A DNA stretch of 60,540 bases, taken from an uncultured bacterium. GTDB taxonomy: Bacteria > Verrucomicrobiota > Kiritimatiellia > RFP12 > UBA1067. A program made the translations under genes and the position numbers. Within the stretch, counting starts at the first letter, position 1, and the number at the start of each line of letters is the position of its first letter. Shown one piece after another: positions 13,278 to 59,256 of the stretch. The notes beneath the pieces are model-generated. The model did no database searches, had not been told where the DNA came from, and worked only from the letters and a program-made list of their open reading frames with translations. The stretch is from assembly GCA_902799715.1 (NCBI GenBank), contig CADCBS010000004.1, positions 1 through 60,540 on the forward strand, read 5' to 3'.

Positions 13278-13286
13278 TGGTAAACT
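13278..13286 (+). promoter_or_regulatory. Extended -10 TGgTAAACT located 9 nt upstream of ATG 13296 (predicted leaderless or near-leaderless transcript).
   Basis: Motif read directly. No SD before the ATG. Confidence 0.4.
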
Positions 13287-35616: not shown

Positions 35617-35646
35617 ATTTTACCCCCGCGGCGGTGCGGATGTCAA
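35617..35646 (-). promoter_or_regulatory. Consensus promoter: -35 TTGACA (35646..35641), 18-nt spacer, -10 TAAAAT (35622..35617). It ends 6 nt before the ftsB-like ATG (leaderless).
   Basis: Reverse complement read directly. No SD is present. Confidence 0.6.
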
Positions 35647-35688: not shown

Positions 35689-35717
35689 TGGAAAAAAAGC
35701 CCCGCATTTGGTAGAAT
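35689..35717 (+). promoter_or_regulatory. Promoter: -35 TGGAAA, 17-nt spacer, extended -10 TGgTAGAAT (35709-35717).
   Basis: Read directly. GGAGGGAAGGG SD before ATG 35742. Confidence 0.55.
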
Positions 35718-35741
35718 TTCCGGCATGGAGGGAAGGGACAA

Positions 35742-45499: not shown

Positions 45500-45508
45500 T
45501 GGTAGACT
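45500..45508 (+). promoter_or_regulatory. Extended -10 TGgTAGACT, 6 nt upstream of the pgsA ATG (leaderless).
   Basis: Read directly. No SD. Confidence 0.45.
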
Positions 45509-52205: not shown

Positions 52206-52214
52206 AGTGTAGCA
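52206..52214 (-). promoter_or_regulatory. Extended -10 TGcTACACT, 8 nt upstream of the ACT-gene ATG (leaderless).
   Basis: Reverse complement read directly. No SD. Confidence 0.4.
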
Positions 52215-57600: not shown

Positions 57601-57770
57601 CCTTTGCGGACGCGCTCCTTGAATTCCTCCGTCATGCGGGGGAAATCCCCGGCGGCGAGGTTCCTTTTCTGGTATTCCTCCTCGATGCGGTTGATCTCCG
57701 CAACAAGAGGCCGTATCTTTTTCAGTTCGCGGTCGTTCTTCGTGCCGAAAAGAAATTTCAGAATATTCAT
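54636..57770 (-). CDS. secA: Preprotein translocase ATPase SecA.
   Basis: MNILKFLFGTKNDRELKK N-terminus, DEAD-like motor motifs, C-terminal zinc motif CPCGSGKKYKNCCG. The ORF is open to 57860. Confidence 0.95.
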   Translation of the reverse strand: MNILKFLFGTKNDRELKKIRPLVAEINRIEEEYQKRNLAAGDFPRMTEEFKERVRKGESLDSILPEAYALVKHACRKLVGTTEEVCGHVLTWDMIPFDCQLVGGIALHQGKIAEMQTGEGKTLVATLPMYLNALSGKNVHLVTVNDYLALRDATWMGHLYKFLGLTVGCIQNTMGSEERRAQYACDITYGTNSEFGFDYLRDNGMAVNPGDVVQNGHEFAIVDEVDSILIDEARTPLIISGPATVSTSAQYIAMRPLVDKLVKLQTEQCNGFMAEAKKLIAEGDEEGAKRRIYQVFHSMPRHKQLLHLFEDPAIRKLHETVEMQMLSEMRKEEAISLREELYFTIDERTREVALTDKGCDRMNPQDPKMFVLPDLAAAMSEIDGDKTLSDTERQERHRAVQSDFMVRSDRVHVVDQLLRAYCLYEEGKDYVVKDNHVYIVDEFTGRILPGRRWSDGLHQAVEAKERVEIEKESQTLATITIQNYFRLYRKLAGMTGTAETEAREFKDIYKLDVLTIPTNRPVRRIDGNDQIYRTQREKYRAIIDEVRRRHEAGQPVLLGTVSVNTSEILSRMLRISKIPHEVLNAKNHAREAEIVAMAGQAGAVTIATNMAGRGTDIKLGPGVVELPQEVVKSQTGLSQCPPGSRKTIRQLLEEKPQGLHVIGSERHESRRIDRQLRGRCSRQGDPGSSQFFVSLEDPLMRLFSGDRIAGIMTRLGMKEGEVMEHRWLNKSVERAQRRVEQSHYAVRKRTLEYDDVMNKQRSIVYELRGKILTGDAETVHQSILDVFEDLVRIQCDAYMASEKDSSPEDLLAWLGVTFPVSVKPEELQDLAGKPEEAGDLIFGRVKAAYEDKCSCEDQEVLPYMERGVFLQCIDRQWQDYLRAMDDLRQSVNLRAYGQRDPLIEYKREAFDMFERLLNSIKTQVANMEFRASTVQNVRRMIAQAEAAEARARAIHPDPSGGGMEPEPAPEAADAPQKPASRAEAISDTFASMMAEGTGRPPSAMPRPAMPPPSMAGARRKVGRNEPCPCGSGKKYKNCCGRNEA

Positions 57771-57777
57771 GGGCGCG

Positions 57778-57786
57778 AGTATACCA
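57778..57786 (-). promoter_or_regulatory. Extended -10 TGgTATACT, 7 nt upstream of the secA ATG (leaderless).
   Basis: Reverse complement of agtatacca, read directly. No SD. Confidence 0.5.
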
Positions 57787-57841: not shown

Positions 57842-57870
57842 TTGACCCGGCCGCGCGCAATTGGTAGAAT
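57842..57870 (+). promoter_or_regulatory. Near-consensus promoter: -35 TTGACC, 17-nt spacer, extended -10 TGgTAGAAT.
   Basis: Read directly. GGGAGA SD before ATG 57900. Confidence 0.65.
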
Positions 57871-57899
57871 GCGCGCGGGATTTTCCAGGGAGAACCGCT

Positions 57900-58172: not shown

Positions 58173-58204
58173 ACAGGCGCGACGCGCGGCCCGCCCGCGC
58201 CTGT
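58173..58204. terminator. Bidirectional hairpin between convergent genes (ACAGGCGCG ... CGCGCCTGT).
   Basis: 9-bp perfect stem, read directly. Confidence 0.4.
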
Positions 58205-59256
58205 CAGAAGAACCATTTGGCCGCGGCGAGCAGCCCTTGCTTCCACGGGACGCGGTGCGACACGCCGGTCTTGCCCTTGAATTCCTCCAGGTGCTCCACG
58301 TACCAGTCGTAGTTGCGGACGAGCGCCTGCTTGTTGGAATACTTCGGCTGCCACCCGAGTTCCCGCTGCGCCTTCTCTATCGACACGAAACTTTCGGTCG
58401 AGGCCGTCTCGTACACCCACGGATACAGCGGCGAAAGATGCAGCTTTTCAAGTATCCGCAGGATGGCCACCACCGGCTTCACCGGAAGGCCGCGGATTTT
58501 CTTGCCGTGCCCGGCGCGGTCGAGCACGGCCTGGTAGTCTTCGCGCATGGTGGTGAATTCCGCCGCGCCGGTGTTGAATTCCGTGTTCACCTTGCCGGCC
58601 GGCAGCGTCAGGCACAGCCATATCGCCTCGTCAAGGTCCTCCACGTCCATCAGCTGGTAGCGGTTGTCGCCCTTGCCGATCATCGGAAAGCCGTGCCCGG
58701 TGTACGCCCAGTCGTAGAAAAGGGCGAACACCCCCAGCCGCTCCGGGCCTATGAAGCTTTTCGGCCGTATCACCGCCACCGTCTGCCCGGCGGCGCGCGC
58801 CTCGCGGCACACGGCTTCCGCCTCTATCTTGGCGTGCCCGTACGGCCCGACGCCCACAAGCTCGTCCGTTTCGTATATCGGATGCTTCTTGGGCACGCCG
58901 TACACCGCCGTCGACGAAATCTGCACCACACGCTCCACCCCGTGCTTCTTCGCCGCGGCCAGCACGTTGCGTATCCCGTCCACCTCCGTCGTGCGTATGT
59001 CTTCCTCGGAATACAGCGGCAGCGCGGCCGCCGTGTTCACCACGGCGTCGCACCCTTCTGTGCATCTGTCCACGGCCGCCGCGTCGCGCACGTCTCCGAG
59101 CGTGAACTTCAGCCATGGCTCGGACGCCTCTGGATATTCGAACGGCGCGATGTCGAGAACCCTTATCTCCGACACGCCTTTGGCGCGCAGGTTCCTGATC
59201 AGGTTGATCCCCAGAAACCCGCTTCCGCCCGTGACAAGCACCTTGCCGATCGCCAT
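58204..59256 (-). CDS. NAD-dependent epimerase/dehydratase (extended SDR).
   Basis: [23 protein letters not shown] Rossmann motif. GGGAGAG SD before ATG 59256; the track start at 59262 is a TTG. Confidence 0.8.

Follow-up and report, generated by a model that had tools for sequence, protein, structure and literature searches.

The window, a 60,540-nt stretch of DNA from an uncultured rumen bacterium of the class Kiritimatiellia, is one contig (C4) of a draft genome that comprises 2.55 Mb in 172 contigs with a G+C content of 65%. Within it, secA, an ftsB/DivIC-like gene, an ACT-domain gene, a pgsA-like gene and an xylB-like gene are each preceded by a −10 element that lies a few nucleotides before the ATG (Table 1). 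A preliminary description of the sequence had listed these five sites and reported that none has a Shine-Dalgarno (SD) sequence. On rereading the sequence, we found every coordinate to be exact and neither an SD nor space for one at any of the five. The gene names fit Pfam and PDB matches (DivIC, ACT_6, CDP-OH_P_transf and FGGY_N/C; solved structures for SecA), and the six genes named as contrasts in that description do have a GGAG-type SD 6–9 nt before the ATG.

Table 1. Promoter elements, coding sequences (CDS) and contrast sites in the window (feature, positions, strand, details)
secA extended −10, TGGTATACT	57778..57786	−	7-nt spacer to ATG 57770; no recognisable −35
secA CDS, 1044 aa	54636..57770	−	spacer CGCGCCC, leading to C(−1)A(+1)T(+2)
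ftsB/DivIC-like promoter	35617..35646	−	TTGACA 35646..35641, 18-nt spacer, TAAAAT 35622..35617, 6 nt to ATG 35610
ftsB/DivIC-like CDS, 94 aa	35326..35610	−	Pfam DivIC; start by coding potential
ACT-gene extended −10, TGCTACACT	52206..52214	−	8-nt spacer to ATG 52197
ACT-domain CDS, 90 aa	51925..52197	−	ACT_6 profile positions 4–76 = residues 5–79
pgsA-like extended −10, TGGTAGACT	45500..45508	+	6-nt spacer to ATG 45515
pgsA-like (CDP-alcohol phosphatidyltransferase) CDS, 218 aa	45515..46171	+	CDP-OH_P_transf
xylB-like extended −10, TGGTAAACT	13278..13286	+	9-nt spacer to ATG 13296
FGGY carbohydrate kinase (xylB-like) CDS, 453 aa	13296..14657	+	FGGY_N profile position 2 = residue 3
TSCPD contrast gene, divergent from secA	57862..57899	+	TGGTAGAAT 57862–57870, 29 nt to ATG 57900; SD GGGAG 57888–57892
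Contrast gene divergent from ftsB	35709..35741	+	TGGTAGAAT 35709–35717, 24 nt to ATG 35742; SD GGAGGG 35727–35732

Two contrast genes are divergent from genes of interest. The mRNAs of the TSCPD gene and of the gene starting at ATG 35742 are predicted to be leadered, with the same type of promoter set further upstream. For the xylB-like gene, whose spacing is at the edge of the range enriched in the genome, the predicted leader is 0–3 nt and probably 1–3 nt. The window also contains a match to TGGTAGTCT-N6-ATG at 58532–58549 (+), antisense within the gene at 58204–59256 (−), which could be due to chance or mark an antisense start.

Spacing of the extended −10 box before start codons

We scanned the draft genome for TGNTANNNT followed at a distance of d nucleotides by ATG. 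There were 56, 50 and 29 matches at d = 6, 7 and 8, compared to 8.6, 9.3 and 8.9 expected from dinucleotide-preserving shuffles (n = 30; z = 15, 14 and 7) and to 17.5 ± 5.5 at all other spacings. A separate pattern search of the genome returned the same 56 matches for TGNTANNNT-N6-ATG. A −10 box adjacent to the start codon is sharply peaked at ~6–8 nt, beyond chance; the genome-wide enrichment over shuffled controls on which the preliminary description had staked its proposal is present, and it also holds relative to other spacings. The range of 6–9 nt given there stands for N6, N7 and N8 but not for N9, which had 14 matches in the raw scan and is not enriched. When anchored on gene starts, d = 9 is modestly above the trough at longer spacings. 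The xylB-like site, with its 9-nt spacer, is the weakest of the five.

The peak is specific. Among all 64 triplets downstream of the box at d = 6–7, ATG has the highest enrichment. The reverse complement of the motif and two scrambled motifs gave no peak at d = 6–8 anywhere in the genome, nor did TGNTANNNA give any spacing peak in the genome scan. Plain TANNNT was rejected as a leaderless box, as enrichment is seen only in the TG-extended form. We likewise rejected a sizeable leaderless class with a −35 and a −10 element and no TG, for which the genome-wide signal is faint. The ftsB-type promoter, which has this structure, has little genome-wide support, and its proposed role relies mainly on conservation in orthologues. 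The reverse-complement control, ANNNTANCA-N14-ATG, showed a lone peak (41 matches versus ~14 at other spacings) that may reflect repeat copies.

To place the box relative to genes, we used a home-made codon log-odds model in which the start of each ORF is the position of maximum coding score; promoter and ribosome-binding-site information is unused. The model output 1827 genes at 85% coding density, and its starts coincide with all five ATGs in the window. TGNTANNNT was found before exact model starts of 23, 23, 6, 5 and 6 genes at d = 6, 7, 8, 9 and 10, respectively. At d = 11–21 there is a trough of ~0–2 genes per spacing, and counts climb again at d ≥ 22, where SD-length leaders begin. Allowing some tolerance around the coding start, ~76 genes have TGNTANNNT 6–10 nt before the start. 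These candidates make up ~4% of genes and ~9–10% of transcription units (64–76 among ~730 or more first-in-unit genes), although the percentages are rough because the codon model probably misses a few hundred genes.

Before most other model starts, GGAG, AGGA or GAGG peaks at 6–9 nt. The 6–8-nt spacers of the candidates are G+C-rich, of the cgcgcc type, and lack GGAG, so an SD precedes most other starts and is absent before candidate starts. Use of the SD is deduced from the GGAG/AGGA peak because the 16S rRNA gene, which would carry the anti-SD, was searched for and not found in the assembly (89.6% complete by marker genes). SD-led initiation is the dominant mode in this genome and the leaderless class is modest. 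The preliminary description had spoken of a dual initiation regime with a sizeable leaderless class; the two regimes are supported, and the class is smaller than that wording implies.

The candidate promoters share the consensus tTtTGGTAtA(c/a)T; a G+C-rich spacer comes next and leads to ATG-AAA/GAA. Their −35 region consists only of a weak TTg at a 17-nt spacer, a usual feature of extended −10 promoters. The base immediately before the start codon is C in 27 of 27 genes with d = 6 and in 27 of 29 with d = 7 (54/56 in total), compared to ~34% elsewhere (p = 3e-23); at d = 8–10 this falls to 62–67%. A 'start element' of Y−1/R+1/Y+2, located 7–8 nt after the −10 element, has been described as a mark of bacterial transcription start sites (TSSs; bioRxiv 10.1101/2025.01.23.634641). 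A C followed by ATG places C-A-T at these positions and therefore matches the element. Of the indirect evidence, this match speaks most strongly for +1 at the A of the ATG.

The candidates are largely restricted to the first genes of transcription units: 60 are first in the unit and 4 are internal, compared to 669 and 859 of the other genes (Fisher p = 8e-17). The rarity of the box at operon-internal genes (4/64) argues against a signal that acts only in translation. ATG is strongly preferred as the start codon (56 ATG, 8 GTG and 2 TTG). The first 40 nt of candidates fold more weakly, at −5.6 kcal/mol, compared to −7.3 for SD-led genes and −11.4 for internal 40-mers (candidates versus SD-led genes, p = 1e-4).

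Functional coherence of the candidate set was considered and rejected, since the Pfam families are unrelated; they include oxidoreductases, glycosidases, a sulfatase, transporters, regulators, SAH hydrolase, RNase PH, an Rnf subunit and threonine dehydratase. One leaderless candidate outside the window (L233; G000:C45:1870-6741, +), with TGGTATAAT-N7-ATG, is a 1623-aa ORF whose single polypeptide unites RNA polymerase beta-type (Rpb2_6, Rpb2_7) and beta'-type (Rpb1_2, Rpb1_5) domains. A fused rpoB-rpoC gene would be much longer, and the product could be a divergent RNA polymerase of the two-barrel type, perhaps from a mobile element.

Start codons and conservation among relatives

Coding potential, N-terminal homology and orthologue alignments all indicate that the codon following the box is the true translation start. 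All five ATGs in the window maximise coding potential, and N-terminal homology agrees with their proposed role as starts. Residue 2 of SecA aligns to residue 2 of solved SecA chains, and the orthologues from 25 relatives align with it starting at residue 1; upstream in-frame extensions are unconserved in relatives. The ACT gene as called publicly on ten metagenome contigs has the same start and encodes the identical 90-aa protein. All of the ACT-gene contigs found are metagenomic DNA and are identical across the promoter. Among 45 candidates checked genome-wide, 16 have a Pfam or PDB match that starts at residues 1–12 and at the start of the profile. Examples are DAO (residues 4–354, profile 1–352), AdoHcyase (2–462, profile 1–299), Metallophos_2 (1–162, profile 1–150), TrkA_N (5–119, profile 2–116) and Rnf-Nqr (4–189, profile 2–173). 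A profile match from residues 1–12 excludes a downstream start for those genes.

Upstream of the proposed start, 39 of the 76 candidate ORFs remain open and contain another in-frame ATG, GTG or TTG. The rule of taking the longest ORF overshoots in these genes; secA and the ACT gene are examples, and their ORFs had been correctly suspected of being over-extended. A box-to-ATG rule can correct wrong longest-ORF N-termini in metagenome-assembled genomes of this lineage.

We then compared the five sites with their orthologues. For secA, seven genomes, each from a different genus and including this one, have an extended −10 element 6–10 nt upstream of the ATG, with a pyrimidine always at −1 and with spacer sequences that differ among the seven. 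In one of them (L016) the TG abuts TATAGT directly, so that there is no exact match to TGNTANNNT. Of 8 ACT-gene orthologues, 6 retain an extended −10 at a distance of 7–9 nt from the ATG, and one of these 6 is from another family. For ftsB, TTGAC[AC]-17/18-TAAAAT-6/7-ATG is kept in 3 genomes (2 besides this genome), and the other orthologues are leadered with an SD. The extended −10 was found in none of the 13 xylB-like orthologues examined in relatives, nearly all of which have an SD of the GGAG, GAGG or AGGT type before the ATG. A pgsA orthologue from the same genus (L112; G001:C192) has the same promoter, TGGTAAAAT, and ~16 extra nt that carry AAGGGA before the ATG, which would represent a switch between leaderless and short-leadered states inside one genus.

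Other arrangements were seen elsewhere in the family. The secA genes of its more distant members (L006–L013, L029) are leadered, with a −10-like box ~45–50 nt upstream. At the same loci, a conserved CAAGGTTGA[TC]NC directly precedes the ATG and may serve as a weak SD or in regulation. In pgsA orthologues from other genera of the family (L120–L127), TGGTTT[CGT]AT is conserved exactly 6–7 nt before the ATG. This box is −10-like and lacks the usually essential A at −11; it could be a variant promoter or a site for another sigma factor.

To determine how far the layout extends through the class, we compared TGNTANNNT-N6-7-ATG to a control spacing of N14-15 in 151 genomes. The ratio is 4.4 in this genome, 1.9–5.3 in four other genomes of the same family (f1), up to 4.9 in f11 and 2.1 in f6 (both of the same order), up to 6.5 in f19 and up to 4.4 in f40, compared to about 1 in most of the remaining families; these ratios are somewhat inflated because N14-15 falls in the depleted zone. 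After Bonferroni correction the enrichment is significant in 20 of 151 genomes, which through kinship are not independent of one another. Within the class, this order and a few further families share the enrichment. The closest named relatives of the SecA protein come from rumen 'RUG' and 'Kiritimatiellae bacterium' metagenome-assembled genomes (71% identity), followed by Victivallales/Lentisphaerae and Verrucomicrobia. The organism resembles a PVC bacterium of the Kiritimatiellae type.

Proposed leaderless promoters and competing explanations

From the architecture of the box, the spacing statistics, the start codon positions and the conservation of the layout, we infer both where transcription begins and how the mRNAs are translated. 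The likely explanation is that ~76 genes have leaderless promoters of the extended −10 type, used by housekeeping sigma, with starts at or near the ATG, alongside an SD-led majority. In the proposed mechanism, RNA polymerase with the housekeeping (σ70-type) factor would use the extended −10 promoters at these genes. With spacers of 6–8 nt the expected first nucleotide is the A of the ATG; with spacers of 9–10 nt it would lie 1–3 nt before the ATG. The resulting mRNAs would have no 5' leader and no SD, and their translation would have to follow the leaderless route: the ribosome, together with initiator tRNA, binds the 5'-terminal AUG. The same promoter type, set at least 22 nt upstream, would drive the SD-led majority, giving two initiation regimes. 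The leaderless regime would serve diverse functions, including the secA, ftsB/DivIC-like and pgsA-like genes.

The competing explanation closest to this mechanism accepts the promoters as real and places the TSS a few nucleotides before the ATG, giving leaders of 1–5 nt, mainly at genes with 8–10-nt spacers such as the ACT and xylB-like genes. TSSs are commonly 7–8 nt after the −10 element (bioRxiv 10.1101/2025.01.23.634641), and the xylB-like spacer, GCGCTTGCC, contains a T-G step at positions 6/7. The weaker preference for C at −1 with d = 8–10 and the missing peak at d = 9 in the raw scan point in the same direction. However, at d = 6–7, which accounts for most of the class, the sole purine 7–8 nt after the −10 element is usually the A of the ATG, with C before it. 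The ACT spacer, TTCCGCCC, has as its sole purine a G at position 5, too near the −10 element for the usual start at 7–8 nt. We regard such short leaders as unlikely to be the general explanation, and leaders of ≤5 nt are in any case generally classed as leaderless. It is much less probable that the box is a non-SD translation signal, or simply an unstructured patch, within a longer leader, comparable to the non-SD sites of Bacteroidota ('group B'). In its favor, the genome has 65% G+C, so that AT-richness ahead of any start codon would reduce local structure. Nevertheless, the box has the form of a classical extended −10: its TG stands two bases upstream of the hexamer, the sequence further upstream is rich in T, and a weak TTG occurs at a spacer of 17 nt. 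The identical box also sits 24–29 nt upstream of SD-led genes. A translation signal should also occur before operon-internal genes, where the box is almost missing, and would leave unexplained a spacing that is constant within one base and the near-invariant C at −1 for d = 6–7.

Two further explanations deny that the box marks a gene start. The boxes could be internal promoters or chance motifs in longer genes that start upstream, for example at TTG 57860 (secA) or TTG 52215 (ACT gene), and the many candidate ORFs that are open upstream would allow this. Coding potential, however, falls at the proposed ATG, SecA aligns with solved N-termini and with its orthologues from its first residues, and many of the candidates' domain profiles begin within the first 12 residues, while the extensions are unconserved in relatives. 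Longer genes are therefore a very improbable explanation. Least probable of all, to the point of being negligible, is a coincidence of chance or composition, or a set of repeat copies. A few near-identical matches do exist, such as TGGTATAATATGCGCATG, which occurs three times on contigs C9 and C34. We count this explanation as already refuted by the z-scores of 14–15 against dinucleotide shuffles at d = 6–7 and by the specificity of the peak to spacing, strand and the ATG triplet; the flanks and gene families are also diverse. Leaderless transcription from extended −10 promoters thus remains the explanation that we favor.

Comparison to known leaderless systems

The observation is real and the leaderless reading is supported. 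It represents an ordinary, already described mode of expression in a little-studied lineage. A literature search found no report pairing 'leaderless' with Kiritimatiellae beyond an unrelated mention, and ProTISA detected no TA-like signal in its 11 Chlamydiae/Verrucomicrobia genomes (PMC2238952). With no earlier report found, this lineage of the PVC group would join the bacteria predicted to use leaderless mRNAs. The orthologue comparisons add clear cases of genes switching between leaderless and SD-led states; the known mechanism is unchanged. A more far-reaching proposal is that the leaderless layout, made up almost entirely of extended −10 promoters and a C-A-T start element, is specific to certain lineages, namely this rumen order of Kiritimatiellae and some further families of the class. 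Genes would flip between leaderless and short-leadered SD states even within a genus (pgsA, secA and the xylB-like gene), and the set, which spans secretion, division and lipid synthesis, might form a separate class in translation when conditions favor leaderless initiation. We offer this proposal as speculation and doubt that it holds in full.

The closest described counterparts are the TA-led leaderless genes of other bacteria, in which a TANNNT Pribnow box lies ~6–8 nt before the start codon (Zheng et al. 2011, PMC3160421; ProTISA, PMC2238952). As in those genes, the −10 box is at a fixed short distance, there is no SD, SD-led genes coexist, and the leaderless or leadered state varies between orthologues of related genomes. 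Unlike them, the genes described here have the extended TG in almost every case, and plain TANNNT is unenriched. The class is also smaller, at ~4% of genes, compared to >20% in Actinobacteria and Deinococcus-Thermus.

In GeneMarkS-2, 'group C' genomes have a Pribnow box 6–8 nt from the start and are predicted to produce 25–50% leaderless transcripts (Lomsadze et al. 2018, PMC6028130). This genome resembles them in that the box lies 6–8 nt from the starts of operon-first genes and SD-type ribosome-binding sites occur on others. However, its share of ~9–10% of units, as estimated from a rough gene model, falls short of that range. It is SD-dominated with a leaderless minority below group C levels.

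In Mycobacterium tuberculosis (PMC3898074), sequenced 5' ends place the TSS on the start codon; the same architecture and mechanism are predicted here from the genome. The same likeness in architecture and mechanism, and the same difference between sequenced and predicted 5' ends, applies to Deinococcus deserti as it is cited in PMC6028130. Finally, the C-A-T at −1/+1/+2, 7–8 nt after the −10 element, in 54 of 56 genes agrees with the start element (bioRxiv 10.1101/2025.01.23.634641, also PMC12641261). That paper does not discuss leaderless genes; in the genes described here, the element is the start codon itself.
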